Below are positions 6,442-27,328 of a DNA stretch of 54,038 nt, piece after piece. The notes beneath the pieces were generated by a model. The model ran no database searches and had not been told where the DNA came from. It was given only the letters and a program-made list of their open reading frames with translations. Position numbers and translations under genes: made by a program. The stretch lies in NCBI GenBank assembly GCA_903843045.1, contig CAIMOJ010000017.1, forward strand, positions 1-54,038, written 5' to 3'. This DNA comes from Candidatus Uhrbacteria bacterium. Lineage in GTDB: Bacteria; Patescibacteriota; Patescibacteriia; UBA9934; GWF2-40-263. How positions within the stretch are numbered: position 1 is the first letter of the stretch; every line of letters starts with the position of its first letter.

Positions 6442-7602
6442 ATGAACATCCCCGATTCCGGCTACACCGACCACCACACGCACCCGTCCTCCCGATGTCG
6501 AATCCTCACGGAATGCGACGCGCGGGCGGCTGCGACGTGGGACGAGGCAAGAACGATGATCGCGGCGCATATCGTTGCGAATCCGACGCGCGATCTCTAC
6601 GTCGTCCACGGATGGAACCAATCGACGTGGGGAACGCCGGCCCAGGCGGATCTCGACGCGCTGACGGACGTGGGACTCGTCGTGATCAACGTCTCGTACC
6701 ACGGGGCGCTGTTGAATACCGCTGCGGCTGAGAAATTTCCAGGGACGATCGGACACCTGGTCTCCGAGAAGGACTTCGAGGAACTCGCCATCGAGACGCT
6801 TCCGAAGTGCGACGACCTCCTCGTCGCGATCCCGAAGTATCACGAGTATCTCTCCACGCTCGGCGTCGTCTCGGCGCACGACATGCACGTTGCAACGATG
6901 GACCAGATTGACGCGTACCGCGAACTCGACCGTCGCGGGGAACTCGCCATCGACACGACCGCGTTCGTGAACGCGCGCCTGCTCGACGATCCGCGGCTCG
7001 TCGAGGCCGTCGCGAACCCGTCGCCGCGCTTCCGCGTCGCGGGACTCAAGCTGTTCCTCGACGGCGCCATCGGCGTGCACACCGCGTTCGTGACCGAGCC
7101 GTACCTCGACACGCACGGTCACGGGATGCTCCGGCACTCGAAGGACGAGTGCGTCGCGCTCATAAAAAAATCGCTAACGCTCGGCCTCGCGACCCCGGCG
7201 ATCCACGCGATCGGCGACGCGGCGGTCGCGACCGTGCTCGACGTCTACGAGGAACTCAAAGCCGACGGTCACGACACGCGCGGCTGGCGCATCGAGCACT
7301 GCGAGATGGTCCGCCCGAATGACATCCCGCGCATCCTCGCCCTCGGCGCCGTCCCCGTCATGCAACCAAACTTCCACTGGGACCTCGACCACTACGGCGA
7401 CCGCCTCGGCGACAACCTCCGGCTGATCAACCCGTTCCGCCCGCTCCTCGACGCGGGAGTCAAAATCCTCTTCGGCTCCGACGGCATGCCGGAAGGCCCG
7501 AAGGTAGGCATCGAGTACGCGATGAACCGCGCGAGGTTTCCGGAGCAACAGATCACGCTCGAGGAGACGCTGATTGCGTATGGGATAACCGGCCTGGATT
7601 GA
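6442..7602 (+). CDS. Amidohydrolase 3 family (YtcJ-like) metal-dependent hydrolase
   Basis: DHHTH, KLFLDGAIG, HAIGDAA, RIEHC, MQPNF, FGSD. Confidence 0.85.
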   Translation: MNIPDSGYTDHHTHPSSRCRILTECDARAAATWDEARTMIAAHIVANPTRDLYVVHGWNQSTWGTPAQADLDALTDVGLVVINVSYHGALLNTAAAEKFPGTIGHLVSEKDFEELAIETLPKCDDLLVAIPKYHEYLSTLGVVSAHDMHVATMDQIDAYRELDRRGELAIDTTAFVNARLLDDPRLVEAVANPSPRFRVAGLKLFLDGAIGVHTAFVTEPYLDTHGHGMLRHSKDECVALIKKSLTLGLATPAIHAIGDAAVATVLDVYEELKADGHDTRGWRIEHCEMVRPNDIPRILALGAVPVMQPNFHWDLDHYGDRLGDNLRLINPFRPLLDAGVKILFGSDGMPEGPKVGIEYAMNRARFPEQQITLEETLIAYGITGLD

Positions 7603-7631
7603 CATCCGGCCGGTTTTTTTTCGGACACGGC

Positions 7632-7789
7632 GGGTGCGGATACGGTGGGGTATCGGAATTCGGATCTTACGGAATTACGGAACTGCGGATGTTCGGATAT
7701 ACGTACGTCCGTAGTTCCGAACATCCGCAAATCCGAAGTTCCGAACATCCGCAAGATCCGAATTCCGATACCCCACCGTATCCGTACCC
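7632..7789. repeat. Palindromic CGGA/TCCG 8-bp-periodic element, copy 1
   Basis: 42-bp terminal inverted repeats (2 mismatches); CGGA at 7670/7678/7686/7694, TCCG at 7708/7716/7724/7732/7740/7748. Confidence 0.92.
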
Positions 7790-7932
7790 ATCATTGACAC
7801 CCGCCCACTTTTCCACTACCCTCACCCCGACGCTGCCACGTCACCAACGACGGCTTCTCCAATCCTGGCGAACCGACGCGTGCCGTTGCGACGGACCGAT
7901 GGGGGACGGATTTCTCCCGAGGCTCGAAGACA

Positions 7933-9186
7933 ATGTCGGCATTCGAAAAGGCTCTCCGCGAAGCGGCCAGCAAGTTCAAGTCGTTCACGGACGCAGTCAA
8001 CGCGCACCTGCGCAACGCGTTCGATCGCGGCGCGACGGACGTGAGGATCTCGTACAACGACGCGGGCGAGGGAAGCACGTTCCTCATGATCGAGGACAAC
8101 GGCCGTCCGCTCACCCGCGACCAGTTCGTGGCCGTCACGAACCCGTCCCCCGAACCGGGGAACGCGCACGAGACGCTCGCTCTCACGGGCGTGCACCACG
8201 CGCGGATGCTCACCGTCGACAACGCGGGAGCGATGCGGACGGTGAACTTCGCGGAATACGACGAGTCGAAGCCGGAGCGCTACAAGCAGCTGTACCCCAG
8301 GGTCGTCGAGCGCGACGGCAGCCTCTCGAAGGCCAACGTCGCCATCCAGCTCTGGTACCTCGGCGCCGGCGACGGCGTGGACCCGCGCCAGGACCGCACC
8401 GCCGCGCGGCTGATCAAGCGCCTTCCGGCAATGCTCACCCCTCGCGAGGCGGGGATGGTGACGGTGGTGGACGAGAAGGGAACGGCCACGCGGCTCTCCG
8501 TCATGGCGCGCATGACGGGGGATGGCGAATACGTCGTGTGGATTCCCGAGCCCAAGGCTTCGTTCGACCACGGACAGCCGCTCGCGCTGAAGTACGGAGG
8601 GGTGCGCATGTCGGTCGACCGTCTTGGCCGCGCAATCCTCAGGATGCAAAGAGGCAAGACCAGCGGCCTGTACGTCTCACCATTCGTGCGGTCGCCCTGG
8701 CTGACCGGAACGATCGAGATTGCACGCGTCGACGGCGCAACCGAGTTTCCGGATCCGCGCAACGACTTTCCGGACGCGCAGTATGAAAACGGGTTCGTCG
8801 AGATGCTGTCCGAACTGCTGCTCACGGGATTGAATCGCGAGGGGACGCGACAGGCGATCCTCCGCGCGGCGGACGGAATCTGGACGACGGTAGGCTCCGG
8901 AAACGGCACGTTCAGATTCGACAGGTTCCAGTACGCCGTGGCATGTCGCGCCGAGATCTTTCGGTCCGACGAGCCTGTCCAGCTTGTCGACGCCGTCAAT
9001 ACGAGACGCTCCATCGAGATCAGCGTCATCCACCCGCTCTTCCAGGCGGACGACGGATCAAAGGCCGTCGGCGAGCGCATGCTCTGGGCCGTCGCCGAGT
9101 TCCTGCACCGCATGCATGACCGGAAGACCCTGGTCTCCAACTCGTACCTCGACCTCCGCGAAGCCATCGACAAGGCGCGCGGCTGA
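7933..9186 (+). CDS. Degenerate GHKL (HATPase_c)/MORC-like protein, paralog A
   Basis: DAVNAHLRNAFDRGATDVRI..MIEDNGRPL (motifs I/II, catalytic Glu absent), SPWLTGTIEI, C-terminal ISVIHPLF. Confidence 0.6.
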   Translation: MSAFEKALREAASKFKSFTDAVNAHLRNAFDRGATDVRISYNDAGEGSTFLMIEDNGRPLTRDQFVAVTNPSPEPGNAHETLALTGVHHARMLTVDNAGAMRTVNFAEYDESKPERYKQLYPRVVERDGSLSKANVAIQLWYLGAGDGVDPRQDRTAARLIKRLPAMLTPREAGMVTVVDEKGTATRLSVMARMTGDGEYVVWIPEPKASFDHGQPLALKYGGVRMSVDRLGRAILRMQRGKTSGLYVSPFVRSPWLTGTIEIARVDGATEFPDPRNDFPDAQYENGFVEMLSELLLTGLNREGTRQAILRAADGIWTTVGSGNGTFRFDRFQYAVACRAEIFRSDEPVQLVDAVNTRRSIEISVIHPLFQADDGSKAVGERMLWAVAEFLHRMHDRKTLVSNSYLDLREAIDKARG

Positions 9187-9221
9187 GCCCTGACCGTTCC
9201 CGTGGGGACGGTCATTTTCTT

Positions 9222-9377
9222 TACGGATACGGTGGGGTACGGATACGGTGGGGTATCGGAATTCGGATCTTGCGGATGTTCGGAACTTCGGATTTACGGA
9301 TATCCGAACATCCGCAGTTCCGTAATTCCGTACGATCCGAATTCCGATACCCCACCGTATCCGTACCGTCTCCGTAC
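9222..9377. repeat. Palindromic CGGA/TCCG element, copy 2 (inverted relative to copy 1)
   Basis: Reverse complement of copy 1 lacking three 8-bp units; 16-bp duplication tacggatacggtgggg at 9222/9238. Confidence 0.92.
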
Positions 9378-9424
9378 TTGACAGCCTTTTCCCCCGGTGT
9401 TACTTTGTGTACATCAGACACAAA
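9378..9424 (+). promoter_or_regulatory. nrtR promoter with overlapping NrtR operator
   Basis: TTGACA(9378)-N17-TACTTT(9401); perfect palindrome TTTGTGT-N7-ACACAAA at 9404-9424 fits the known GT-N7-AC NrtR box. Confidence 0.8.
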
Positions 9425-9435
9425 CACTCCACCCT

Positions 9436-10113
9436 ATGACCCAACCCAAACAACCAGCCGAGCAAAGCATCAAGGTCGCCACGGACGCCGTGATCTTTAC
9501 CGTCCGGCGCGGGGAGCTCATGGCGCTTCTCATCCAGATGAAGAAGGTTCCGTACACCGGCAAGTGGGCCGTGCCGGGCGGGATCATCGGGCAGGCCGAG
9601 ACCACCGAGCAGGCGGCACGACGCATCCTGACGACGCAGACCGGGGTGAGCGACGCGCACCTCGAGCAGCTGGCGACGTTCGACGATCCGAAGCGCGACA
9701 AGCTCGGACGCGTGATCAGCGTGGCGTACGTGGCGCTCGTGGCGAGCGAGAAGGTGATCCTCAAGACGACCGAGAAGTACGCGGACGTGCGCTGGTGGCC
9801 GACGAGCAAATTGCCGGCGCTCGCGTACGACCACAAGGACATGGTCGCCGTGGCCGTCGATCGCCTGCGCGCGAAGCTCGAGTACACGAACGTGGCGTGG
9901 AGCCTGCTCCCTCCGCAGTTCACCCTGACCGAGCTGCAGGAGATCTACGAGATCATCCTCGGGCGGCCCGTCGACAAGCGCAACTTCCGGCGGCGCGTGC
10001 TCGACCTCGGCATCGTGGTCGGGACCGGGACCAAGCGGATGGGAGGCGCGCACCGTCCCGCGGAACTGTACGCATTCAAACGGCGAAGCATGGAATACAT
10101 CGAGGTGCTGTAA
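9436..10113 (+). CDS. nrtR: NrtR, Nudix-related ADP-ribose-responsive transcriptional regulator
   Basis: Degenerate Nudix box GG....ETTEQAARRIL, LAYDH, C-terminal wHTH FTLTELQEIYEIIL..DKRNFRRR..HRPAELY. Confidence 0.92.
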   Translation: MTQPKQPAEQSIKVATDAVIFTVRRGELMALLIQMKKVPYTGKWAVPGGIIGQAETTEQAARRILTTQTGVSDAHLEQLATFDDPKRDKLGRVISVAYVALVASEKVILKTTEKYADVRWWPTSKLPALAYDHKDMVAVAVDRLRAKLEYTNVAWSLLPPQFTLTELQEIYEIILGRPVDKRNFRRRVLDLGIVVGTGTKRMGGAHRPAELYAFKRRSMEYIEVL

Positions 10114-10159
10114 GCGCGGGGAAGGCGGCCGGCAAGGCCGCCTCTCTCCAGCCCGATTG

Positions 10160-10210
10160 TTCGTGTAACTTCTACATGAACATACCCCGTTCGTTCGGAT
10201 CGGACACGAA
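10160..10210. promoter_or_regulatory. NrtR operator(s) upstream of pncA
   Basis: TTCGTGT-N7-ACATGAA (10160-10180) and degenerate TTCGTTC-N7-ACACGAA (10190-10210). Confidence 0.65.
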
Positions 10211-10266
10211 GTGCGACAAATTTTTGCCAAGGCTGGTCATTTTTCCAGGATTCCTCTGGTTCCCCC

Positions 10267-10295
10267 TTGACGAAACCGAAGAAATTGGCTAATAT
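10267..10295 (+). promoter_or_regulatory. Promoter of the NAD operon
   Basis: TTGACG-N17-TAATAT. Confidence 0.65.
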
Positions 10296-10304
10296 CAGGC
10301 ACTC

Positions 10305-10363
10305 TTTGGAGTCTTTACCCAAGCCGCCCGCATCCCGCGGACGGCTAGGAAGAAGACTTCAAA
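10305..10363 (+). promoter_or_regulatory. Conserved intergenic stem-loop element E0
   Basis: tttggagtcttt pairs with gaagacttcaaa around the agccgcccgc/gcggacggct hairpin. Confidence 0.7.
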
Positions 10364-10375
10364 AAGGAGCGTTCC

Positions 10376-11140
10376 ATGTCGGCACCACACCCGATCGTTC
10401 GTACGGTCGAAGGCCCCATCATCATCAACGACGTCCTCTGGGCGGTCCTATCCGTGGACATCATGCGCACGTTCATGATGGGCGGCGGCCTCGGCGTACA
10501 GGGCGGACACGAGATCGTCCTTCCGGGTCTGAGGATGATCCGCAAGTTCAGCCGGGAATTCCGGTACGCACTGATGGACATCCACGCGCCCGGAAGCGTC
10601 TCCATCGTCACCAGCTTCGTCGGGTACGAGGCGTTCTACAAGCTCACCTATGACGAGGTGAAGGGGTGGACCCCGAAGAAGAACCGGATCGCCGCGCACG
10701 CGCGATTCACCCTGCGGGAGCTCAAGCGGTACCTGCGGAAGGTCGGCTTCCAGATCCTCTGGCCCGAACACGCGATGGAAGGTACGGACGAGGCCCGCGT
10801 GGAGCCCGAGATCCTCAACGAGTCAACGCTCCCGTGGTTCAAGGGCAACCGTCCGCACTCCGACTCGAATTCCGGATTCGAGGAGAACGACGGGCACGAC
10901 ATCGGTCTCGGCGCTCAGCTCTGGTGCCGAGGAATCAGGAAAATCGTGGTGTGGGGAATCGCGGGCGACGTCTGCGCGGGTCTCACGGCGCTGCACGGAG
11001 CCAAGCGGGGCTTCGAGGTCTACTTCGTCACCGACCTCTCGCCGTGCATCAGCCCCGAGGGCCGCGACGCGATGTACCAGCGTCTCATCGACGCCGGCGT
11101 CCACCTGATCACCTCCGACCAGATCCAGCAAGCGGCCTGA
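10376..11140 (+). CDS. pncA: Nicotinamidase (isochorismatase family)
   Basis: VDIM..F..GG.L.V.GG, DIH, WPEH..EGT, KG....DS.SGF, GIAGDVC. Confidence 0.85.
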   Translation: MSAPHPIVRTVEGPIIINDVLWAVLSVDIMRTFMMGGGLGVQGGHEIVLPGLRMIRKFSREFRYALMDIHAPGSVSIVTSFVGYEAFYKLTYDEVKGWTPKKNRIAAHARFTLRELKRYLRKVGFQILWPEHAMEGTDEARVEPEILNESTLPWFKGNRPHSDSNSGFEENDGHDIGLGAQLWCRGIRKIVVWGIAGDVCAGLTALHGAKRGFEVYFVTDLSPCISPEGRDAMYQRLIDAGVHLITSDQIQQAA

Positions 11141-11164
11141 CCGCTCTCCCCGAGACGCTCTCGG

Positions 11165-11211
11165 GACTTTTCTCCGGATGCTTGCGCCGTGCAGGCCGCC
11201 GAACAGAAGTC
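11165..11211 (+). promoter_or_regulatory. Conserved intergenic stem-loop element E1
   Basis: gactttt/agaagtc basal stem; preceded by cccgaga/tctcggg hairpin. Confidence 0.7.
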
Positions 11212-11234
11212 ACTCGGAACCAGGAGACCTTTCC

Positions 11235-12641
11235 ATGAACATCGTCCTATTTGGCACGAGCGCGAACCCGCCGACGCGGGCGCATCGGCTGGCCGCGGAA
11301 CAGCTTGCCAGGGTCTTTGACCGCGTGGTCGTGATTCCGTGCGGGATCCGTCCGGACAAGCACACGACCAACGTGGTGAGCGTGGTCCACCGGGCGCGGA
11401 TGTGCCAGATGGCATTTTCCGGGATCCCCAACGTCGAGATCGACCTGTCCGATCTCGAACGAACGGAATTCATGACGACCGTCGAGCTCGACCGCCACTG
11501 GAAGCGGCGCGAACCGGGCGCGGACATCTGGCACGCGGTCGGGTCCGACCTGATCCGCGGCGGACGAAGCGGCGCGTCGGACATCCAGCGCGAATGGCGC
11601 GAAGGCAGCACGGTCTGGCAGACTCTGCGCTTCGCGGTCATTCCGCGGCAGAGGTATCCGTTCTCCGACGACGATCTCCCGACGCTCGGGCGCGTCATGG
11701 CGTTCGAGATTCCGGACCATTCGAGCACGGAAGCGAGGCGTCTCCTGTCCTCCGGGCAGAACGCAAGCGACATCGTCTCGCGACGGGTGGCAGAGTATGC
11801 GCTGCGGTTCGGCCTGTACGGATTCGCTCCCGGCAGCCGGACGGAAGGGCGACTGCTTCTCCCGTCAGGCCCGAGTCTGTTCGTGGTCCCGGACCTGAAC
11901 AATCCGGCCGCCGTCCGCCGCGCACGGCGGCTGACCGGCCAGTGCGAACGGCCCGAGGACGCCGACATGATCGTGGCGATCGGCGGCGACGGTCACATGC
12001 TACACGTGATCCGGCAGACGCACCGGCATTGCGTCCCAATTCTCGGCCTCAACGCGGGCCACGTGGGATTCCTGCTCAACGAGCTGTCTCCCGAGGCGCT
12101 CAAGTCGCGCATCGCGGCCGGCGTTCCGTTCACCACGCACCTGCTCCCGATGCTCGCCGTGAGCATCCGGGGGATCGACGGAACGTGGGGCGACGAGCGG
12201 CTGGCATTCCAGGACGCATGGCTCGAGCGGTCCGGAGAGCAAACCGCGCGATTCAAGATCGGCGTCGAGGGACGGAGAACCCGCGCGTTCCAGATCACGT
12301 CCGACGCCATCCTCGGATCCAACCCCGCCGGATCCGGCGCGTATGCCGGCTCGATGGGCGCGCCGCTCATCCCGCTGAACTCCGCGTCCCTGATCCTCGC
12401 GGCCGGATGCGTGGCTCGTCCGAGAAACTGGACGCCAAAGCTGCTCGCAAACGGAACGCGCCTGACCTTCGAGGCGATGGAAACGGAAAAGCGTCCGGTC
12501 CGGGCGGTCATCGACGGATTGGGACACGGACCGGCAATCGGCATGCGCATCCGCCAGAGCGTGCTCGCCGGCGTGGAACTCGCCTTCGACCCGGAACTCA
12601 CGCTCGACCAGAAGATCGAGGACCTGTCCTTTCCAGCCTGA
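11235..12641 (+). CDS. nadD: Nicotinate-nucleotide adenylyltransferase (NadD) - NAD kinase (NadK) fusion
   Basis: N-terminal FGTSANPPTRAH, GSDL, SSTEAR; C-terminal IGGDG, GLNAGHVGFL, NPAGSGAY..SMGAP; AGGAG RBS. Confidence 0.85.
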   Translation: MNIVLFGTSANPPTRAHRLAAEQLARVFDRVVVIPCGIRPDKHTTNVVSVVHRARMCQMAFSGIPNVEIDLSDLERTEFMTTVELDRHWKRREPGADIWHAVGSDLIRGGRSGASDIQREWREGSTVWQTLRFAVIPRQRYPFSDDDLPTLGRVMAFEIPDHSSTEARRLLSSGQNASDIVSRRVAEYALRFGLYGFAPGSRTEGRLLLPSGPSLFVVPDLNNPAAVRRARRLTGQCERPEDADMIVAIGGDGHMLHVIRQTHRHCVPILGLNAGHVGFLLNELSPEALKSRIAAGVPFTTHLLPMLAVSIRGIDGTWGDERLAFQDAWLERSGEQTARFKIGVEGRRTRAFQITSDAILGSNPAGSGAYAGSMGAPLIPLNSASLILAAGCVARPRNWTPKLLANGTRLTFEAMETEKRPVRAVIDGLGHGPAIGMRIRQSVLAGVELAFDPELTLDQKIEDLSFPA

Positions 12642-12662
12642 CCCTTCCGAGACGCTCTCGGA

Positions 12663-12707
12663 TCTTTTCTCAGGAACCCCACCGCCGGTGGGGAGTCTGA
12701 CCGAAGA
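12663..12707 (+). promoter_or_regulatory. Conserved intergenic stem-loop element E2
   Basis: tcttttctcagg..ccccaccgccggtgggg..ctgaccgaaga; near-identical to E3. Confidence 0.75.
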
Positions 12708-12733
12708 CAACGTTCTTTTCAGGGAGACATTCC

Positions 12734-13798
12734 ATGTCATTCAGAGATCACATCGTCGGGTGCGCCGTCGGCGTCACCCTCGAGGCGCTCGGCGTCCCGC
12801 ACGAGACCATCACGCCCGAGGAAATCCTCGCGCTCACGAACGGCGCCGGGCTCACGGGGCTTCACCCCGCGCTCAAGCCGCCGGCGTTCCACAGCGTCAC
12901 GCGCATCCCGCTTGGCGGAACGTCCGACGACTGGCAGCTCTGGCGCGCGGTCGCGCGGTCGCTCATCGCCCGCAGGGGCGAGTTCGACGCGATCGACATG
13001 GGCCGCGAGCACGTGCTCGAGCTCAACCGCTGCACGGACGGATGGGGATCGAGCACCGAGGACGGCGCGCGACGCATCGAGCGCGCGCTCGACTTCGGCG
13101 GCATCGAGCGCCTCTACCCCGAAATCCCGCCGCGCACACCGCATCCTCCCATCCCGGGCGAGGATCCGAACGCGAAGGGATGCGGCAACGGCGTGGCCAT
13201 GAAGGTCGGCCCGCTCGCCATCGCGTCGCTCCGATTTGAGAGCCGCGACAGGTGGCTTTGGGAAAGCTGTCAGAAACTCGGCGAGCTCACCCACCCGAAC
13301 CCGCGCGCATGGATCGCGGCCTACGCCCTGGCCTGGTGCATTCGCGAGTGTCTGCACCGCGCCGAGATCGGAGAGAGGCCGTTCCGCGAGGGATGGGCCC
13401 CGGACGAGTTCCTCCACACGCTCCTCAACGTGATGACCTGTCACGAACCTGTCGGCGGAGATCGCGTGGAAGACCGGCTGCGCCGTCTCCGGCAGCCCGG
13501 CGTCCTCCGTTCGGCCGAGGCGCTTCGCGAGGCGACCGGAACGAGCTGCTACGCGCTCGAGTCCGTCCCGTTCGTCATCGGCACCTTCCTGCGCCATCCC
13601 GCGAACGTCCGCGCCGGAGTCCTCGAGACGCTGAACGCGGGCGGCGACACGGACACGAACGTGGGGATGTACGCCTCGCTCGCCGCCGCGAACGAAGGCT
13701 ATCGCGCGATCCCGAAGAAATGGCTCGCCCAGATCCCGAACTCCCGCCAGGCGTTCGCGCTCGGCGAGGCGCTCTACAATCTCCACGAGAGGCACTAG
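12734..13798 (+). CDS. ADP-ribosylglycohydrolase (DraG/ARH family)
   Basis: TSDDWQL, GNGVAMKVGP, LTH, GGDTDTN. Confidence 0.88.
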   Translation: MSFRDHIVGCAVGVTLEALGVPHETITPEEILALTNGAGLTGLHPALKPPAFHSVTRIPLGGTSDDWQLWRAVARSLIARRGEFDAIDMGREHVLELNRCTDGWGSSTEDGARRIERALDFGGIERLYPEIPPRTPHPPIPGEDPNAKGCGNGVAMKVGPLAIASLRFESRDRWLWESCQKLGELTHPNPRAWIAAYALAWCIRECLHRAEIGERPFREGWAPDEFLHTLLNVMTCHEPVGGDRVEDRLRRLRQPGVLRSAEALREATGTSCYALESVPFVIGTFLRHPANVRAGVLETLNAGGDTDTNVGMYASLAAANEGYRAIPKKWLAQIPNSRQAFALGEALYNLHERH

Positions 13799-13862
13799 CC
13801 TCCGTCCCTCAAGCCATTCTCGGCTTGTCCTCAATAGCTCCCGCTCAGGAGCGACGGAGGAA

Positions 13863-13907
13863 TCTTTTCTCAGGACCCCCACCGCCGGTGGGGAGCCTGA
13901 CCGAAGA
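13863..13907 (+). promoter_or_regulatory. Conserved intergenic stem-loop element E3
   Basis: Near-identical to E2. Confidence 0.75.
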
Positions 13908-13933
13908 CAATACCCTTTTCACAGGAGGCACAC

Positions 13934-15220
13934 ATGTGCATGGCACAACGCGGGCTGATCGAGGAAATTCTCGACGGTCCGGTCGTCGGCGGAATGCTCG
14001 ACGACGACTTCTACACCGAGACCATGGGACAGTTCGTCCACGAGCGTCACCCGGACGTCGAGGTCGTCCTCGGGCTGAAGAACCGCTCGAAGGAACGGCT
14101 CGCCGAATCGGTCGGCGAGAACGAGCTCGGCGACGAGCTGACGCGGCTGCAGGCCCGTCGCTTCACCAGGACGGAGCTGCACTACGTTCTCGGCACGGAC
14201 GAGTACGGCGACCGGATGTTCCGCACGCCGTACATCCGGCACCTCGAGGCGTTCCAGATGACGCCGTTCGACCTCTCCGCAAGGGACGGGCAGTTCCATC
14301 TCCAATTTCCCGGCCAATGGAAGTTCGCCATGCGCTGGGAGGTCCCGGCGCTCGCCACCATCAACGGGCTGCGGACGCGCAACCGCCTTCGCGGGATGTC
14401 CAGCGGGGAACGCGACCTCGTCATCGCGACCGGCATCACCCGGCTGTGGGAGAAAATCCGCACCATCAGGAAGTATCCGAAGCTCACGTTCACGGACTTC
14501 GGGACGCGGCGCAGATTCCACCGCGCGTGGCAGCGCTACGTCGTGAAGACCCTGCGCGACGAGCTTCCCGGCCAGTTCCTCGGCACCTCGAACACCGAGG
14601 CTGCCATGGACTTCGGCGTCATGCCGATGGGCACGAACGCGCACCAGCTCTACATGGTGATCGCGGCCATCCTGTCCGCCACGGACGAGAGCCTCGTCGC
14701 CTCCCACAACCTCGTGCTGCGCGAGTGGTGGAACCTGTACGGCTGGACGCTGTCGATCGCGCTCACCGACACCTTCGGGAGCGACTTCTTCTTCCGAGAC
14801 TTCACGGCCAAGCAGGCCGAGGAGTGGAAGGGCCTGCGCCAGGACTCCGGCGACCCGGTCGCGTTCGGGCACAAGGCGCTCGCGTTCTACCGCAAGCACG
14901 GCATCAACCCCATGGACAAGCTGCTGATCTTCAGCGACGGCCTCGACATGGAGATGATCGTCCGGCTGTGGCTCGAATTCGAGGGCCAGATCAAGGTGTC
15001 GTTCGGCTGGGGCACGCTTCTCACGAACGACCTCGGCCTCAGCGCGATCTCGATCGTCATCAAGGTCCTGGCCGCGCGCCTGAACGCGGATTCCCCGTGG
15101 GTGGGAACGGTGAAGCTCTCGGACAACATCGAGAAGGCGATGGGCTCCGCCGAGGACATCGAGCGATACAAGCGCGTCTTCCAGTACCTCACCACCTACG
15201 CCGCGGAGTGCCGCGTCTGA
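13934..15220 (+). CDS. pncB: Nicotinate phosphoribosyltransferase
   Basis: LDDDFY, DFGTRRR, GTSN, GTNAH, LTDTFG, GLRQDSGDP, FSDGLD, FGWGT, KLSD. Confidence 0.93.
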   Translation: MCMAQRGLIEEILDGPVVGGMLDDDFYTETMGQFVHERHPDVEVVLGLKNRSKERLAESVGENELGDELTRLQARRFTRTELHYVLGTDEYGDRMFRTPYIRHLEAFQMTPFDLSARDGQFHLQFPGQWKFAMRWEVPALATINGLRTRNRLRGMSSGERDLVIATGITRLWEKIRTIRKYPKLTFTDFGTRRRFHRAWQRYVVKTLRDELPGQFLGTSNTEAAMDFGVMPMGTNAHQLYMVIAAILSATDESLVASHNLVLREWWNLYGWTLSIALTDTFGSDFFFRDFTAKQAEEWKGLRQDSGDPVAFGHKALAFYRKHGINPMDKLLIFSDGLDMEMIVRLWLEFEGQIKVSFGWGTLLTNDLGLSAISIVIKVLAARLNADSPWVGTVKLSDNIEKAMGSAEDIERYKRVFQYLTTYAAECRV

Positions 15221-15235
15221 GCGAGACCGTCTCGC

Positions 15236-15289
15236 TTCTTTTCTCCAGGCAACGAGCGCATTCCGCGTTCGCTGCCTCGAGGTGAAGAA
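15236..15289 (+). promoter_or_regulatory. Conserved intergenic stem-loop element E4 (3' strand includes SD GAGGTG)
   Basis: ttcttttctccaggc...gcctcgaggtgaagaa. Confidence 0.7.
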
Positions 15290-16231
15290 ATGGCTCTTCT
15301 CAACAGACTGCTTTTGTTGGCGACTCCCGAGATGGAGGCGGTGGCATGGACGATCAAGGCGACCGCGGCGTTCCAGGTGGACGTCGAGGTCCTTGAGTGG
15401 GACCGGCGGTTTCCGGACGGGTTTCCCGACCAGAGGATCGTGTCGCCCCTGCGCGGCAGGGACGTCTGCGTCCTCGCGTCGTTCCATTCGCCCGACGCGA
15501 TCGAGCGGCAGTCCGGCATCATCTGCGCGATCCCTCGCTTCGGCTCGCGGTCGCTGCGCGTGGTGGCGCCGTACTTTCCCGGGACGATGGAGCGCGTTCG
15601 GAAGCCCGGCGAAATCGCCACGGCCATGACGTACGCGCGGCAGTTGTCGGCGACGCCGGCCTGTCGAATCGGCGGCATGGCGGAGTTCGTCTTCTACGAC
15701 ATCCACCAGACCGGCATCCAGTTCTACTTCGGCGACGGCGTGGCCGTCCGACTGGAGACGGCGATCCCGCTGCTCAAGTCACGCCTGCACACGCTCGGAT
15801 TCTACGAGCGGGAAACCCTGGTCATGTTCCCCGACGACGGGGCGCACAAGCGGTTCGGCGACGACTTTCCCGAGTTCGACCAGGGAATCTGCGCGAAGGT
15901 TCGCGGCGAGGGCGACGAGCGAATCGTCCGCCTGATCTGCGGGAATCCGCGCGGCTGCAAGGTCGTGGTCGTCGACGACCTGATCCAGCGCGGAGGGACG
16001 ATGATCGAGACGGGGAAGCTCATGCGCGACCTGGGCGCGACCGACGTGATCGGCTTCGCCACGCACTTCGTGGGCCCCGACTTTGCCGAAGCCCGCTTCG
16101 TGCCGAACGAACCGTTCTCCCGCGTGATCGTCACCGATTCGCATCCGTCCGCGGCCCGCGTCGACATTCGCGAGCCGTTCGAAGTCCTTTCGCTCGGCGC
16201 AGCGATCGCAGCCATCATCCGCGAGGAATGA
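15290..16231 (+). CDS. prs: Ribose-phosphate pyrophosphokinase, class II (plant PRS3/4-like)
   Basis: FPDG, PYFPGTMER..GEIATA, YDIH, FPDDGAHKRF, KVRGEGDERIVRL..GNP.G..VVVVDDLIQRGGT, ATH. Confidence 0.88.
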   Translation: MALLNRLLLLATPEMEAVAWTIKATAAFQVDVEVLEWDRRFPDGFPDQRIVSPLRGRDVCVLASFHSPDAIERQSGIICAIPRFGSRSLRVVAPYFPGTMERVRKPGEIATAMTYARQLSATPACRIGGMAEFVFYDIHQTGIQFYFGDGVAVRLETAIPLLKSRLHTLGFYERETLVMFPDDGAHKRFGDDFPEFDQGICAKVRGEGDERIVRLICGNPRGCKVVVVDDLIQRGGTMIETGKLMRDLGATDVIGFATHFVGPDFAEARFVPNEPFSRVIVTDSHPSAARVDIREPFEVLSLGAAIAAIIREE

Positions 16232-16232
16232 C

Positions 16233-16790
16233 ATGTTCAGACTATTCGCAACGCTCTACACCGGCTTCGTCTCGCTCGAGGCGTGGGCCCGCGGGAATGA
16301 GACCAAACCGATCCTCGTCGTCCGATCGACGGACTCGTGCTCCGGCCTTCTCTACGACCGACCGCGCAACCGCGTCCTCCTCGTTCGCCAGAACCGCGCG
16401 CCGATGGTGCGCGATGACAATCCCGACGGCTCCATCGTCGAGCTCGTCGCCGGACGCTTCGACCGCGCGGTCGGACCGAAGGCGCTGTTCGTCGCCGAGG
16501 CAAAGGAGGAAGCCGGCGCGAATATCACGGAAGAAGACGTGGAGCTCCTGAACGGCGGCCGGCCGATGGCCCCGTCGCCCGGAATCCTCACCGAGCGCTG
16601 CACCCTGGCCTTCGTCGAGATTCGCGAGGAGCATCTCGACGCGGGAGAAACGTTCGGCGTCGCTGCCGAGCACGAGGTCACCAATCGCGAGTGGATGTCC
16701 GTCCAAGGTTTCCTCTCCGGCCCGCACGATGACCTCCGCGTCTACACGCTCGCGCGCGAGCTCGAGTGCAGACTCCTTCGGAAGCGCTGA
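16233..16790 (+). CDS. Nudix hydrolase, ADP-ribose pyrophosphatase (NudF/NudK)-like
   Basis: VLLVRQNRAP, ELVAG, EAKEEAG, SPGILTE; starts immediately after the prs stop. Confidence 0.8.
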   Translation: MFRLFATLYTGFVSLEAWARGNETKPILVVRSTDSCSGLLYDRPRNRVLLVRQNRAPMVRDDNPDGSIVELVAGRFDRAVGPKALFVAEAKEEAGANITEEDVELLNGGRPMAPSPGILTERCTLAFVEIREEHLDAGETFGVAAEHEVTNREWMSVQGFLSGPHDDLRVYTLARELECRLLRKR

Positions 16791-16797
16791 CGCTTCC

Positions 16798-16851
16798 GTC
16801 TTTTCTCCAGGACTCGATCGCATTCCGCGCTCAAGTCCTCAAGGTGAAGAT
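16798..16851 (+). promoter_or_regulatory. Conserved intergenic stem-loop element E5
   Basis: gtcttttctccaggact...agtcctcaaggtgaagat. Confidence 0.7.
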
Positions 16852-17901
16852 ATGACGTCCCCAACCAACGTTCTCATGATCGGCGATTTCGGAAAGGACC
16901 TGGACGACGAGTTCGCCCTGCTCCTTGCCGTGGCGCTCGAGCGGCTCGGATACATTCGCCTGCTCGGCGTCGTCGCGAACCTCGCGCCGGCAATCGAGCG
17001 CGCGCGGCTTGCGAAGGGCACGCTTCAGACCCTCGGGCTCGGGCGCGTCCCGGTCGCGATCGGACGGCCCGTCACCGACGCGGGACGAACCTGCCCGCAC
17101 GATACGACCGTCCCGTATCTCGCCGACGCGTCCGAGCTGTCGGGCGAGGGGATCGACCTGATGCGACGGGTCCTCTCGGAAGCGGACGACCGCTCGGTCA
17201 CGCTCGTCCTGAATAGCGCGTTCACGGACGCCGCCGCGCTCGCCCGATCGAGCCCCGATCTGTTCCTGAGCCGCGTCTCCCACGTCGCCATCATGGGCGG
17301 CGTTACTGAGCGCGACGGACGTCTCGTTCCGGACGACGCCGCCAACAACGCGTTCGACCCGGCCGCGGCCGAGTTCCTCTACCGCTGGCTCCAGGACAAT
17401 CGCGTCCCGACCACGGTCGTGATGCGCGAGGCGGCCTACGCGTGCCAGATGGCCGCGTGGCTTCCCGTGAAGCTCGCCGAGATCGGGCACCCGGTGGGCC
17501 TCTCCCTCGCGCGTCGGCTTCCGCTCGTGATGGACGACCTCTGGGAGGCGGTCCACGCGCCAATCGGCTCGCCGATCCGCGGGACGCTCCCGCCCTCGCG
17601 GACCCGGGACTGGTACGTTCGCACCACCACCGGCAACAAGGACCCGGGCGTGCCGGGCGACGAGACCGTCTGGCCGTTCGTGGAAACGTTCCGCCTGTAT
17701 GACCCGATGAACCTCCTCGCCGCCGTGCCGGAACTCGCGGACCGGTTCTATGACGCCGATACGTTCACGGTGAACGGCACCGCGCACAAGGTCATCGGGC
17801 GCACCAAGGAATGCAACGGCATCCGCGACCCGCTGGCCCTCCGCGAAACCCTCGCGCAGTTCGCCACCGAGGCGCTTGCCCCGTTCGCCGGCGAGGACTA
17901 G
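16852..17901 (+). CDS. Inosine/uridine-preferring nucleoside hydrolase family protein
   Basis: DFGKDLDDE, IMGGV, ANNAFD, LYDP. Confidence 0.8.
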   Translation: MTSPTNVLMIGDFGKDLDDEFALLLAVALERLGYIRLLGVVANLAPAIERARLAKGTLQTLGLGRVPVAIGRPVTDAGRTCPHDTTVPYLADASELSGEGIDLMRRVLSEADDRSVTLVLNSAFTDAAALARSSPDLFLSRVSHVAIMGGVTERDGRLVPDDAANNAFDPAAAEFLYRWLQDNRVPTTVVMREAAYACQMAAWLPVKLAEIGHPVGLSLARRLPLVMDDLWEAVHAPIGSPIRGTLPPSRTRDWYVRTTTGNKDPGVPGDETVWPFVETFRLYDPMNLLAAVPELADRFYDADTFTVNGTAHKVIGRTKECNGIRDPLALRETLAQFATEALAPFAGED

Positions 17902-17950
17902 CTCCTCCTCGCCTTGTCCTCCATAGCTCCCGCTCAGGGGCGACGTAGGA

Positions 17951-17994
17951 CTCTTTCTCCCGGCCGCCGAATCGTCGACGCCCGGGACCGAAGA
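17951..17994 (+). promoter_or_regulatory. Conserved intergenic stem-loop element E6
   Basis: ctctttctcccgg...ccgggaccgaaga. Confidence 0.65.
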
Positions 17995-18011
17995 AATGCA
18001 AGGATACCCTC

Positions 18012-18932
18012 ATGCAACTGCGAGCTCTTTCCCTTTCGATCATGACGAGCGACCGCGAGAACTGCAACGCGGGATGCCAGTTCTGCATCTCGCGAACCAC
18101 CCCGGGCGACGTCATCGACCCGCGCGAACCGAAGCACTGCTCCGAGGCGCGGCTCCAGGTCGCGCTCGGCTACGCGAAGGCGCTCGGCGCCACGCACGGG
18201 ATCCTGACCGGCAAGGCCGACCCCACGCAGGAGAAGCCCGAGTACCTGTGCGGGCTGGTGCGAAGCGTCCGCCAGCACCTTCCACTGTGCGACATGCACA
18301 CGAACGGCTTCCTGCTGCACCCGGGCAAGAACCGCGAGCACCTGCTCGCGGGGCTCGTGGACGCGGGCCTCACGATGGTCACGCTCTCAATCGCAAGCTT
18401 CGACGAGGACGGGAACCGCGAGCTCATGGGCATCCGCCAGAGCGCCGCGGAGCTCATCCCCCTCGCGCGCGAGCTCGGCCTCATGGTCCGGTGCTCGCTC
18501 GTGGTCTGCAAGGGCGGAGCGAGCAACACCGATGAGGTGCTCGCGTACGTGCGACAAGCCGGCGAGCTCGGCGCCCAGTCCGTGGTCGTCCGCGAGGTGT
18601 GGCGCCCCGAGGTGCTCACCCCGGTGAACGAGCGCGTCTACGCGTGGAACCACGAGAACGCCATCGAGATCCAGCCCATCGAGGACGATATCGCGGATAT
18701 CGCGGAAACCAAGGGGAACCCGCACAGTCTCCACAAGCTCTACACGCTGCCGTGGGGCCGCAAGGTGTTCGCGTTCGGCGAAGGGACCTTCCGTGACCCG
18801 AGCCACGCCGTGCAGGTCGTCGTCTCCACGAGCGGAGACAACTTCCGCGGTGGTACCTACCAGACCCTCGTCCTCCGCCCCGACGGCAACGTCTACGGCG
18901 GATGGGAAAGCAAGGGCTCCATCCTCGCCTGA
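18012..18932 (+). CDS. Radical SAM protein
   Basis: CNAGCQFC (CX3CX2C), TGKADP, HTNG, LSIAS. Confidence 0.88.
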   Translation: MQLRALSLSIMTSDRENCNAGCQFCISRTTPGDVIDPREPKHCSEARLQVALGYAKALGATHGILTGKADPTQEKPEYLCGLVRSVRQHLPLCDMHTNGFLLHPGKNREHLLAGLVDAGLTMVTLSIASFDEDGNRELMGIRQSAAELIPLARELGLMVRCSLVVCKGGASNTDEVLAYVRQAGELGAQSVVVREVWRPEVLTPVNERVYAWNHENAIEIQPIEDDIADIAETKGNPHSLHKLYTLPWGRKVFAFGEGTFRDPSHAVQVVVSTSGDNFRGGTYQTLVLRPDGNVYGGWESKGSILA

Positions 18933-18980
18933 TCGCGACCGTCGCGGTCTTGTCCTCCGAAGCTCGCCGAGCAATGAGGA

Positions 18981-19026
18981 CTCTTTTCTCCAGCCGCCGA
19001 AATCCTCGGCGGCTGGATCCAAGGAG
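18981..19026 (+). promoter_or_regulatory. Conserved intergenic stem-loop element E7 (3' strand is SD AAGGAG)
   Basis: ctcttttctccagccgccga/tcggcggctggatccaaggag. Confidence 0.7.
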
Positions 19027-19031
19027 ATTGA

Positions 19032-20141
19032 ATGCCACGCTTCAGCAACGTCCTCTTCGTCGGAACCGGCGGGGGAAACGACATCTTCTCGACAGCGCTC
19101 GCGATGCTTTCGCTTCGCCGGGCAGGGTACGAGTGGGATTCCTGCTCCGTCGCGGGAGTGCTCAGCCCGTTCCATCGTTACCGCGGACTGACTCGAACGG
19201 AATGCAAGCACGTCGATTCCATTCCCGACCGGGAAATCAAGCGCATCGTGCCGTGCCTCGTGGACGTCATCGAGCTCGACATGGTCGAACGAACGGTCGC
19301 GTCGCTCGCCCGGGCCGAACGGGACCTGAACGTCGGCGCGGTCTACGGACTGTCGCTGACCGAGGGAACGAGCGGTCTGGAGGAAGCGTTCCGCTGGCTC
19401 GCGTCCACGCATGACTTCGTTGTGCTCGTGGACATCGGCGGCGACATCCTGTTCCGCGGGTTCGATACGGATCCGCGCGTGCTTTCCCCGATGTTCGACG
19501 CGATGGTCCTCGAGGCGTTCTGCGCGTCCGGAGCGCCGGGCATCCTGTTCGAGGCCGGCCCGGGAACGGACGGCGAGATCAGCCCCGGGTCGCTCAAGGA
19601 AACGCTCCTTGACCCGACGGTTCAGAGCTGTCCGCTCGCGGCGTCCGTCGTCGACGAATGGGATCGGCTGTTCCGAACGCACGTCGAACCCGTCCGTGCC
19701 GGCCGCACGGTCCCGAAGACCATCGAGGCATTCCGGTCCGAACGGCCATCGCTCACCCTCGACTACCGCGCGCGATGCCACCTTGGCAAGCGGCGCTGGT
19801 ACGCGACGTTTCCCCACGAGATCGACACGGCCCTGAACCGTTCCTTCTACCTCGTCCCTCCCAAGTGGGCGCGACGCCGCAACCCCTTCTGCGTTCCCTG
19901 CCGATCCGTTGAGGAATGGATCGGGATGACGCGGCAGCCGGGCTGCCATGTCAACGGGGAGTTCCAGTTCGAATATCTGACCGCGGACAGGAGCGTCTGG
20001 CTCCTTGCGCTCCCGTCCCCGCTGTTCACGCCCGACCAGCGGAAGGAGATGGTCGACGCGGCATTCGAGGACGCGCGCCGCGGCAACTGCCACGGCGTGA
20101 TCGTCGACGGCCCGGAAGGCCTGGTCTGCCGCACTTCGTGA
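19032..20141 (+). CDS. DUF1152-like protein
   Basis: GTGGGNDI, VDIGGDIL, GPGTDGE motifs. Confidence 0.7.
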   Translation: MPRFSNVLFVGTGGGNDIFSTALAMLSLRRAGYEWDSCSVAGVLSPFHRYRGLTRTECKHVDSIPDREIKRIVPCLVDVIELDMVERTVASLARAERDLNVGAVYGLSLTEGTSGLEEAFRWLASTHDFVVLVDIGGDILFRGFDTDPRVLSPMFDAMVLEAFCASGAPGILFEAGPGTDGEISPGSLKETLLDPTVQSCPLAASVVDEWDRLFRTHVEPVRAGRTVPKTIEAFRSERPSLTLDYRARCHLGKRRWYATFPHEIDTALNRSFYLVPPKWARRRNPFCVPCRSVEEWIGMTRQPGCHVNGEFQFEYLTADRSVWLLALPSPLFTPDQRKEMVDAAFEDARRGNCHGVIVDGPEGLVCRTS

Positions 20142-20155
20142 TCCGGCTCGGATCA

Positions 20156-20209
20156 CTCTTTTCTCCAGCCCTCGAGCGCATGTCGCGCTCGAGGGCTCGA
20201 AACGAAGAG
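20156..20209 (+). promoter_or_regulatory. Conserved intergenic stem-loop element E8
   Basis: ctcttttctccagccctcgagcgc/gcgctcgagggct..gaagag. Confidence 0.7.
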
Positions 20210-20233
20210 CACCTTACACTCGGAGAAAACAAC

Positions 20234-23207: not shown

Positions 23208-23277
23208 GCAACGCTTCGCGGTATTTTTTTCGCATGGCATGCAAGACCTACCGGAAGTTTTTTGTGGCGGCCGCCAC

Positions 23278-23512
23278 ACGGCGTTACTTTCTTTCCGCGG
23301 AGAAAGAAAGTAACCAAAGAAAGCCGCCGCCCGGTCTCCATGGCGGGATGGGACGCAAAACCTGGCCTCGGCTGCGGAACTCGCTAGCTGCGCCAGACGC
23401 AAACCCCTGACGCGCCGCTTCGCTCAGGCAATCCTCGCCCGTCCTGACCGACCCGGCCAAGTTTTACGTCCCATCTCCCATCCGCCATTCCGACAGGGCG
23501 GGTTGACCGGGC
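23278..23512 (+). repeat. Structured REP/MITE-like repeat (GTTACTTTC...GAAAGTAACCAAAGA type), copy A
   Basis: Homologous to the reverse complement of 23627-23870 with compensatory stem changes. Confidence 0.8.
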
Positions 23513-23626: not shown

Positions 23627-23870
23627 CCGGTCAGCCGCCCTGCCGGAGCGACCCAGCCAGGACGTGAAAATCTGACGGCGGCCTCAGCCGGGCGAGGATT
23701 GTCTGAGCGTACGAGCCCGCAGGCGAGAAGCGAGTTCCGCAGCGAGTCAGATTTTTACGTCCTGGCGCAGGAGCGGATGGCCGGGCGGTAGCGGCTCTCT
23801 TTGGTTACTTTCTCTGCCCGCCCTACAGAGAAAGTAACGCGGGTGCAGGGCGCAGCGCCTGCGGCAAACA
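23627..23870 (-). repeat. Structured REP/MITE-like repeat, copy B
   Basis: Inverted relative to copy A; close to 31010-31245. Confidence 0.8.
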
Positions 23871-25788: not shown

Positions 25789-25840
25789 TCCTTGGCCCTG
25801 ACCGTCACTTGTGTGGCGGTCATTTTTTTGTAAGACGATG

Positions 25841-25968
25841 ACGGTTTTGGTACGGAGTTCGGATCGTACGGAATTACTGAACTGCGGATATACGGAGTTT
25901 GCCGTGCACCATCCGTCACATCCGTAGTTCTGGACATCCGTACGATCCGAACTCCGTACCAAAACCGT
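25841..25968. repeat. Palindromic CGGA/TCCG element, copy 3
   Basis: Perfect 32-bp terminal inverted repeat acggttttggtacggagttcggatcgtacgga; 8-bp periodic core. Confidence 0.92.
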
Positions 25969-27295: not shown

Positions 27296-27328
27296 CCGTC
27301 ACTGAGGTGACGGTTCTTTTTTTACGAA

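Follow-up and report, generated by a model that had tools for sequence, protein, structure and literature searches.

The window analyzed here is an entire contig (C17, 54,038 nucleotides) of a Candidatus Uhrbacteria genome, G000, a metagenome bin of 1.28 Mb in 76 contigs (96% complete, 61% G+C). We confirmed that it contains four imperfect palindromes made of CGGA boxes, which bracket two paralogous genes for degenerate GHKL-like proteins: palindromes A1 and A2 lie around gene A, and B1 and B2 around gene B. The reading that we favor, and to which we give about an even chance, is that the palindromes are foldback tandem-word repeats, low in copy number and genus-wide in distribution, and that the reader of their boxes is most likely a protein whose gene lies elsewhere. 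The main features are as follows.

7632-7789, no strand: palindrome A1, with seven CGGA boxes followed by nine TCCG boxes and a 24-bp (three-unit) tandem duplication in the right arm
7933-9186, plus strand: gene A, encoding a degenerate GHKL (HATPase_c_3-like) protein of 417 aa (P0001), assigned from Pfam, an AlphaFold model, and structure and ESM Atlas matches
9222-9377, no strand: palindrome A2, which corresponds to A1 in reverse complement, shorter by 24 bp; 9223-9376 is inserted relative to the sister genome G003
25830-27468, plus strand: unit B entire, 1,639 bp that are missing at the syntenic G003 site, with ends that form an inverted repeat
25841-25971, no strand: palindrome B1, defined by repeat search, box spacing and folding
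26105-27295, plus strand: gene B, encoding a protein of 396 aa (P0002) and paralogous to gene A (29% identity, E 2e-32)
27326-27457, no strand: palindrome B2, which repeats B1 in direct orientation (93% over 129 nt)

The original prediction had described palindromes of about 157 bp, composed of 8-bp-phased CGGA units that flip to TCCG at the centre, and repeat search, box spacings and shuffled controls all agree with this description. The arms of A1 (7632-7703 and 7718-7789) are 72 nt long and 86% complementary, and those of A2 (9236-9301 and 9302-9367) are 66 nt long and 88% complementary; the corresponding values are 49 nt and 90% for B1 (25841-25889 and 25920-25968), and 49 nt and 88% for B2 (27329-27377 and 27409-27457). 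Successive CGGA boxes are spaced by 7, 9, 8, 8 and 8 bp before the flip to TCCG at the palindrome centre. A 23-mer of the arm end occurs four times, compared with no occurrence in 100 shuffles. Folded as single-stranded DNA, A1 reaches -73.9 kcal/mol (z = -16.4 relative to shuffles) and B1 reaches -57.6 kcal/mol (z = -14.5). The arm as a unit measures about 65 bp: a terminal module of 16-17 bp is followed by about seven CGGA boxes approximately 8 bp apart, with variable spacers between them.

BLAST aligns A2 with A1 in two reverse-complement segments (94.7% over 94 nt and 98.5% over 67 nt) that are offset by exactly 24 bp, as expected from the earlier claim that the second copy is the reverse complement of the first minus three 8-bp units. 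A2 also has an additional terminal duplication of 16 bp; together, these differences of 24 and 16 bp indicate that the elements change size in whole units. The two palindromes form an inter-element inverted repeat (7633-7744 with 9256-9367, 112 nt, 89%), so that gene A is indeed enclosed by a large inverted repeat. The asymmetric centres show that B1 and B2 are repeated in direct orientation, while A1 and A2 are inverted. The same arrangement had been said to recur at 25.8-27.5 kb; this holds insofar as palindromes flank the paralogue there, but B1 and B2 are direct repeats and B2 is followed by a convergent terminator. The A and B palindromes are about 90% alike, whereas the proteins of genes A and B are only 29% identical.

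Comparison with G003, a sister species of the same genus, reveals empty sites for these elements. At the A locus, G003 has the same order of amidohydrolase gene, family gene and NrtR gene, and no palindromes. The two genomes are 91% identical upstream of A1 up to position 7588, and the A1 region that follows (7589-7791, 203 bp) faces 51 unalignable bp in G003. A2 (9223-9376, 154 bp) faces 4 bp, a clean indel after which identity resumes at 81%. The difference at the B locus is larger: in G003 two convergent terminators abut, and B1, the promoter, the leader, gene B, its terminator and B2 are all missing. The ends of unit B form an inverted repeat (25823-25889 with 27409-27475, 67 nt, 90%). Unit B thus behaves as a single inserted cassette with the palindromes as its bounds, in line with the suggestion that the palindromes are ends of a mobilized cassette, and gene B and its palindromes would have moved jointly. 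Gene A is 76% and 73% identical in DNA to its G003 orthologue (L051) at its two ends, and its middle is unalignable. The unalignable part (8606-9029) comprises the middle and C-terminal part of the gene, and protein identity is 55% overall; either fast evolution or replacement of a cassette could account for this divergence.

The gene family and the arms are each found without the other. Word-array inverted repeats were absent from all seven other family loci (in G003, G004, G013, G069, G081, G084 and the metagenome locus L053), which indicates that the gene family is independent of the elements; downstream at the loci of G004 and G069 there are short hairpin repeats of an ordinary kind. Such arrays were likewise absent at seven loci of long (~680-aa) GHKL relatives, in the roughly 1.5 kb covered to either side of the N-terminal match. 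In G000, homologous copies with the same box order occur at six places on three contigs: A1, A2, B1, B2, a solo arm between convergent genes (C76:13747-13811) and an arm fragment (C46:131820-131847), the last two found by BLAST. With A2 as query, BLAST also identified solo arms in three other genomes: G003 (C26:3835-3899), G006 (C48:907-955) and G001 (C97:4180-4233). The G003 arm is at the site orthologous to the C76 arm of G000 (3-kb alignment, 87% identity), and the arms of G006 and G001 apparently share a second site, as judged by eye from a short matching flank. The neighbors of solo arms encode guanylate kinase, pseudouridine synthase, glycosyl hydrolase and proteins without family assignment, and G006 (96% complete) carries its arm yet has neither the GHKL-like gene nor its leader. 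The arms are therefore independent of the gene. These observations contradict the proposal that gene and palindromes constitute a general, dedicated module (the G003 orthologue occupies the same site without arrays), and in the proposed search of the genome and its relatives the element did not always flank this protein family. Arms beside unrelated genes and homologs without flanks, the two outcomes that had been named in advance as speaking against the module, were thus largely found. The arm fragment on C46 is apparently translated, as seen by eye, as the last residues of a riboflavin-synthase-like gene (C46:131820-131866), with the next start codon just downstream.

These counts depend on the search used. 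The comparison covered 73 family genomes, with an order-level protein survey of 162 genomes. A strict pattern of four exact CGGA boxes at 8-bp spacing matched, among the 73 genomes, only G000, a 48-bp in-frame array in G002 and a GC-rich, chance-like stretch in G070. This pattern was too stringent: BLAST later found degenerate solo arms in three of the eight other genomes of the genus, and we do not claim that the CGGA arm family is confined to G000. A five-box pattern matched 94 stretches in viral contigs, many of them tandem repeats at contig ends, and these matches were not used.

Twelve arms align over about 65 nt with identical box order, and in this alignment the core boxes are invariant while the spacers vary. 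In the two orthologous pairs of solo arms, 47 of 48 core positions are identical, compared with 62 of 89 other positions (Fisher p = 3e-5, from a small sample and an alignment partly anchored by the cores themselves). Homogenization of whole units would have equalized the spacers too; the pattern is instead that of constraint acting on the 4-nt boxes themselves, which suggests that the CGGA boxes are read by a protein. The proposal that the arrays are cooperative protein-binding sites is consistent with both the phasing of the boxes and the conservation of their cores, and the arrays remain candidates for this role.

Genes A and B are the sole two members of their family in G000, and the closest database relative of the gene A protein is assigned to Candidatus Uhrbacteria. 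The prediction of a GHKL fold without the catalytic Glu holds. The AlphaFold (AF2) model of P0001 (pLDDT 70.6) matches GyrB 43K, ParE, the MutL N-terminal domain (NTD) and Hsp90 in Foldseek with E-values of 5e-8 to 1e-6, at TM scores of only ~0.3; these alignments span approximately 350-400 columns of GyrB 43K and MutL-NTD, a span that would take in a transducer-like part. All ten of the best language-model neighbors of P0001 in the ESM Atlas carry HATPase_c_3. The Pfam score of P0001 itself for this domain is below threshold (15.5 bits, E 0.018, with the cut-off at 25 bits), and no Pfam match was obtained for P0002 or for seven further full-length family members. Residues 8-220 of P0001 can be aligned to a 678-aa HATPase_c_3 protein (P0029), whose catalytic Glu corresponds to Ala24 in P0001, and motif I (ExxxNxxD) is not kept. 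The position of the Mg-binding Asn of motif I (the N-box) is not conserved among 16 family members, and the G1 box DxGxG has become DNGRP or DDG; a G-x-G-x-G stretch (LGAGDGV) is retained in most members and in the long relative. The likeness of P0001 to the GHKL ATPases (HATPase_c_3: MutL NTD, GyrB 43K, Hsp90, MORC/paraMORC) is one of predicted fold, and the protein differs from them in the Ala in place of Glu, in the altered G1 box, in the unconserved N-box Asn and in the sub-cut-off Pfam score. MORC3 is matched only weakly by sequence (E 0.6-0.9) and its ATPase motifs are not present; no MORC-type accessory domains were detected in P0001.

The C-terminal half of the protein diverges fast. 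Libraries of defense families and NCBI families gave no match for P0001 or P0002, and across Pfam, structure, and these libraries no nuclease or recombinase domain was detected in the GHKL-like protein. The family is small: 31 representatives at E ≤1e-3 among 1.84 billion proteins, of which about 20 are full length, and full-length copies in 7 of the 162 genomes of the order. Neither plasmid and phage records (tblastn) nor viral contigs contained a relative. As far as literature and family libraries show, the GHKL-like gene family and its leader have not been described previously.

The transcription signals around the elements are listed next.

7594-7619, plus strand: terminator-like hairpin and T-run after the amidohydrolase gene (terminator scan); its loop contains TTGACA, and G001 has this hairpin behind its amidohydrolase gene too
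7794-7822, plus strand: putative promoter of gene A (TTGACA, 17 nt, TACCCT), read from the sequence, conserved upstream of all family genes but failing a consensus scan
7823-7932, plus strand: conserved 5' leader of gene A, with two small hairpins (loops ATCC and CGGAnTT) from alignment and alifold; covariance model match at 7823-7935, E 1.3e-18
9191-9222, plus strand: terminator of gene A (terminator scan), conserved in G003
9378-9406, plus strand: promoter of the NrtR gene, outside the element and abutting A2, recognized in the sequence and conserved in G003
25799-25829, plus strand: terminator of the gene upstream of unit B (terminator scan), 80% like the gene B terminator
25979-26007, plus strand: promoter of gene B (TTGACT, 17 nt, TATCCT), from a promoter scan
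26009-26104, plus strand: conserved 5' leader of gene B; covariance model match at 26009-26107, E 5.1e-11
27294-27323, plus strand: terminator of gene B (terminator scan)
27477-27500, convergent: terminator after B2 (terminator scan)

Terminator-like hairpins lie directly upstream of all four palindromes, and TTGACA or TTGACT lies 0-4 bp past A1, A2 and B1, although only the gene B promoter passes the consensus promoter scan. Each element had been placed between a terminator and a TTGACA -35 box; the terminator side of this statement stands in every case and the -35-like hexamer in three, while B2 runs instead into the convergent terminator. The upstream layout proved to be family-wide at the loci that we read (A and B of G000, and those of G003, G004, G013, G069, G084 and metagenome L053). 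The loop of a terminator hairpin contains TTGACA, a -10 hexamer follows after 17 nt, and next comes a leader, approximately 110 nt long, that forms two small hairpins for which there is some covariation (alignment, alifold). The leader covariance model has nine matches in 8 of the 73 family genomes, each directly upstream of a family gene; those at G081 and at a truncated copy in G067 lie outside the sequences from which the model was built. No match was found upstream of the long GHKL relatives. Because the leader occurs only at family genes, promoter, leader, gene and terminator make up one unit, and the leader may be a new cis-regulatory element. One hairpin of the leader has, in every family member, an ACGGA-type loop that resembles the CGGA box; the likeness extends over 8-9 nt and could be due to chance.

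Under the reading that we favor, the seven-box arms, which exist singly or as inverted pairs, would be gained, lost and resized by insertion, deletion and unit slippage. In G000, the paired form may have reached the edges of two accessory gene cassettes, each with promoter, leader, GHKL-like gene and terminator, and cassette B would itself be an insertion bounded by palindromes. The elements would not be required for gene function; their boxes would be read individually, most likely by the product of a gene at another location and not by the GHKL-like protein, and this box-reading protein may also mobilize or recombine the elements. Several observations weigh against this picture. All four full palindromes lie at the sole two paralogues, an outcome that has a random probability of the order of 1e-10 given about 1,200 intergenic gaps (a hand estimate); the predicted gene-element link is thus non-random in G000, and a specific association exists that a generic repeat would leave unexplained. 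The search for empty sites and target duplications that had been proposed with the original prediction yielded the former in G003, but no target-site duplication is visible at any junction, with the A2 and B junctions compared with G003. A search of G000 for an IS200-type (Y1, PF01797) transposase gave no match, and no mobilizing enzyme was identified. A1 and A2 are inverted while B1 and B2 are direct, so that no single cassette geometry applies. Only one sister genome is syntenic on both sides, and its empty sites could be losses there and not gains in G000. Finally, the solo arms are kept at orthologous sites across species, and are thereby more stable than typical selfish DNA, which fits a host function.

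Such a function is the core of an alternative that we regard as possible but rather unlikely, in which the arrays are regulatory or architectural sites of the host, coated cooperatively by a small DNA-binding protein, for example of the ribbon-helix-helix (RHH) type, that would repress, activate or insulate the abutting promoters (of gene A, the NrtR gene and gene B) or block read-through from terminators. The design of a 4-bp box with a spacer of about 4 bp, in direct and inverted orientation, would be analogous to the ParG operator and centromere of TP228; the cores are conserved while the spacers are not, with core boxes invariant across the twelve arms; the last box lies 0-4 bp from a -35 hexamer at three of the four palindromes; and solo arms have been retained at orthologous sites in different species. 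Yet G003 has the same promoters without any array, B2 and the solo arms are not beside promoters, and no DNA-binding gene adjoins any copy, the sole RHH_1 match of the genome being at C46:69232. The concentration of full palindromes at two paralogues would be accounted for if the GHKL-like protein itself recognized, maintained or mobilized them, preferentially in cis, in the manner of REPIN-RAYT systems, where REPINs likewise cluster beside a single-copy RAYT gene. The insertion of unit B as a block together with its palindromes fits this idea, as do the box-like ACGGA-type loop of every leader and the similarity of the palindromes (~90%) around genes that are 29% identical, which would make the elements young, or homogenized, around old genes. 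We nevertheless find a dedicated GHKL module quite improbable: none of the seven other family loci is flanked, G006 has arms and no gene, a genome of another genus (G009) is rich in 8-bp-phased AGGC palindromes and has no gene, the protein has no detected nuclease or recombinase domain, and the resemblance of leader loop and box is short enough to be fortuitous.

The 112-nt, 89% inverted repeats around gene A would in principle allow recombination between A1 and A2 to flip a segment of 1.5 kb, as in a phase-variation switch. Short-read contigs from four lake-water metagenome runs of one study contain this stretch but end exactly at the palindromes, so they do not fix its orientation, and they are equally uninformative about excision and empty sites. 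The prediction of inversion sites makes little sense as a switch, however, because the segment between the repeats contains the promoter and leader as well as the gene and its terminator, and flipping would not switch the gene; moreover, the orientation matches that of the array-less G003 locus, B1 and B2 are direct repeats, and no recombinase gene is adjacent. We consider this explanation very improbable. Assembly easily goes wrong at palindromes and inverted repeats, and G000 is a metagenome bin of 76 contigs, but we give almost no credence to an artefact or a chance arrangement: interiors and junctions of the elements are present in contigs of the four separate runs at ≥99% identity, the copies are imperfect, with ordered differences between them, related arms occur in three other genomes, and shuffled sequences gave no match. 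The foldback tandem-word reading thus remains the one that we prefer.

Two other candidates were rejected. The GACCGT...ACGGTC terminator was dropped as a part of the element or its target, as the motif is present at 26 places, several of them ordinary terminators elsewhere. NrtR was dropped as the box reader, since no NrtR gene is close to unit B or to the solo arms and the NrtR gene has a separate, ordinary NrtR-box-like palindrome (9407-9427).

It is instructive to compare the CGGA palindromes with known repeat systems. The original prediction took their design to be undescribed, but paired arrays of tandem 7-8-nt words have been published for Xanthomonas and Geobacter, and the CGGA palindromes belong to this tandem-word class, with words of 7-8 nt, facing arrays, and dispersed intergenic copies behind terminators or stop codons, at a copy number that is low relative to the published cases. 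In the literature on candidate-phyla repeats or octanucleotide foldbacks we found nothing specific. According to the available passages of Rehm et al. (2015, PMC4692102), Xanthomonas campestris and X. axonopodis have about 190 arrays of the heptamer GGGAATC per genome, with 70-75 convergent pairs; facing arrays could form stem-loops or cruciforms, and the arrays are lineage-specific, mostly intergenic and close behind the 3' end of the upstream gene. The CGGA palindromes share with them the tandem-word arms facing on opposite strands and the intergenic position behind the upstream gene. The Xanthomonas unit, as these passages present it, is 7 nt long, G-rich and discussed as quadruplex-forming, whereas the elements here have an 8-bp period, a 4-nt core with variable spacer and six copies; no gene-bracketing arrangement is described in those passages, and the CGGA arms have a fixed box order and a terminal module (PMC4692102).

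For Geobacter metallireducens, the corresponding sections of Aklujkar et al. (2009, PMC2700814) list "predicted global regulator binding sites", of which class 1 consists of four tandem octanucleotide repeats; the sites form opposite-strand pairs at variable distance, occur in tens of copies, and are proposed to bind a protein, with function unknown. The class 2 unit, TCTCCGTS(Y) of 8-9 nt (PMC2700814), resembles the TCCGTAC-type ends of the CGGA arms when compared by description, not alignment. Geobacter belongs to another phylum and uses other words, insertion sequences lie at a fixed distance from class 1 sites, and those sections report no link to a GHKL-like gene (PMC2700814).

The plasmid TP228 has, at the ParG operator OF and the centromere parH, 8-20 degenerate tetramer boxes with 4-bp spacers in direct and inverted orientation; as far as the consulted text of Wu et al. 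(2011, PMC3130281) goes, these are ACTC boxes with AT-rich spacers, just upstream of the promoter and bound cooperatively by one ribbon-helix-helix dimer per box. Boxes of 4 bp, the 8-bp period and the mixture of direct and inverted copies are common to both arrays, here known from sequence alone. The ParG arrays, on that partial account, are plasmid-borne beside the genes for their binder and ParA, whereas the CGGA arrays are chromosomal and dispersed and have no RHH or ParA gene as neighbor (the palindromes adjoin genes for amidohydrolase, NrtR and proteins without Pfam match); unlike the ParG arrays as described there, they form long near-perfect palindromes able to fold. As general background, the metboxes of MetJ are 8 bp long, and the heptads of omega 7 bp.

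In REPIN-RAYT systems, hairpin-forming repeat doublets cluster beside a single-copy RAYT gene, as outlined by Bertels and Rainey (2011, PMC3116915). The likeness to this outline consists in a gene flanked by hairpin repeats of its own flavor and in dispersed, intergenic repeats that are not autonomous; the gene between the repeats here codes for a GHKL fold and not for a Y1 (HUH) transposase, there are only six copies, and the link is missing at seven other loci. MITEs offer another comparison, in that A1, A2, B1 and B2 are each one long inverted repeat, but the A2 and B junctions show no target duplication and no transposase is linked. The distinguishing features of the present elements are the 8-bp period with a conserved 4-nt core, the fixed box order, the full palindromes around an expression unit and the GHKL-like cargo.

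Similar word arrays of other types exist in G000 and in its relatives. All four PF05635 ("IVS-protein") genes of G000, which belong to the four-helix-bundle family named after the 23S rRNA intervening sequence and lie on contigs other than C17, are located between inverted arms of locus-specific 8-9-nt words.

C23:9085-9393, strand not given: PF05635 cassette
C27:47251-47565, strand not given: PF05635 cassette
C69:4039-4344, strand not given: PF05635 cassette
C51:11820-12110, strand not given: PF05635 cassette, the copy with an internal TGA

Gene-less foldbacks that share words with the C51-type and C27-type cassettes are found at no fewer than 13 places in G000. As with the GHKL-like genes, a gene is placed between inverted arms of tandem words and gene-less foldbacks are dispersed in the genome. 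In the PF05635 cassettes, however, the gene measures about 0.4 kb and has a single arm to its left and right, compared with a full two-armed palindrome on each side of a 1.2-kb gene here; the cargo also differs, and the GHKL-like gene has its own promoter, leader and terminator. G009, a genome of another genus that lacks the GHKL-like gene, has 8-bp-phased palindromes of AGGC flipping to GCCT at six places at least, and G004 has tandem AGGCGGGA arrays. Counts from the periodic-arm inverted-repeat scan, which overlooked even the C17 palindromes, are minimum values.

The present locus offers unusually clean handles on the function of paired 7-8-nt word arrays, as in Xanthomonas and Geobacter: low copy number, fixed box order, exact empty sites in a sister genome, a cassette indel of 1.6 kb and conserved 4-nt cores. 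With low-copy arms, empty sites and conserved cores, the identity of the word reader is directly testable with a few oligonucleotides. A bolder proposal, which we think distinctly unlikely, is that tandem-word foldbacks are the cis sites of an undescribed system in which a box-reading protein moves or delimits whole accessory-gene cassettes. If so, unit B would be an example caught in the act, in which a pair of foldbacks had received a complete expression unit between them; beside the IVS-protein genes, the degenerate GHKL-like clamp would represent a second type of cargo or partner, and the long-unexplained heptamer and octamer arrays of bacteria would gain a function as cassette borders. 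Independently of this proposal, the analysis delineates a very small GHKL protein family of Uhrbacteria-like bacteria that is catalytically degenerate and lacks annotation, and all nine copies in the 73 family genomes carry their own conserved promoter and structured 5' leader.

Some further observations concern the relatives. In G004 (L009 2190-2888, G004:C47), a gene for an IS200-like Y1 transposase (PF01797, E 3e-7) is located directly 3' of the family gene; it lies between two identical 25-bp palindromes and forms a REP/RAYT-like unit. Five of six G009 palindromes (L026, L037, L039, L041, L045 and L047, at ~1460-1570 in each) are situated within long open frames whose third-position G+C is coding-like, a feature reminiscent of the Rickettsia palindromic elements; the G009 palindromes emerged only in a control search with the reversed pattern. 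The 48-bp array of G002:C86 (L019 1500-1550) consists of six TCCGAAC-type 8-bp units and is in frame, contributing 16 codons to a 667-aa open frame that reads like a leucyl-tRNA synthetase.

Rfam gave no match at gathering scores, and at an E-value threshold it returned only long-hairpin look-alikes far under the cut-off (an Aggregatibacter sRNA and miRNA precursors). Elsewhere in the window, downstream of A2, the region 9378-22270 begins with the gene for the NrtR-type regulator (NUDIX and NrtR winged helix domains), which has a 21-bp palindrome (9407-9427) over its own promoter. It is followed by a cluster for NAD salvage and synthesis, with genes for an isochorismatase-like protein, a nucleotidyltransferase and NAD kinase, an ADP-ribosylglycohydrolase, NAPRTase, a nucleoside hydrolase and NAD synthase. 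Just upstream of genes of this cluster are three sets of direct repeats of 50-60 nt, 71-90% alike, some with a GC-rich hairpin.

12662-12721 and 13862-13921, strand not given: direct repeats of the NAD cluster (repeat search; no Rfam match)
15237-15292, 16799-16854 and 20157-20212, strand not given: direct repeats of the NAD cluster (same search and Rfam result)
13819-13867 and 17908-17956, strand not given: direct repeats of the NAD cluster (same search and Rfam result)

These repeats could be shared leaders or operators of an NrtR regulon. Hairpins built on TTACTTTCT and AGAAAGTAA are located at 23262-23330 and 23743-23840, in a non-coding stretch of about 600 bp. An 80-nt part of this stretch, without a match at Rfam gathering scores, is repeated 7.3 kb downstream (31040-31117) with 82-93% identity.

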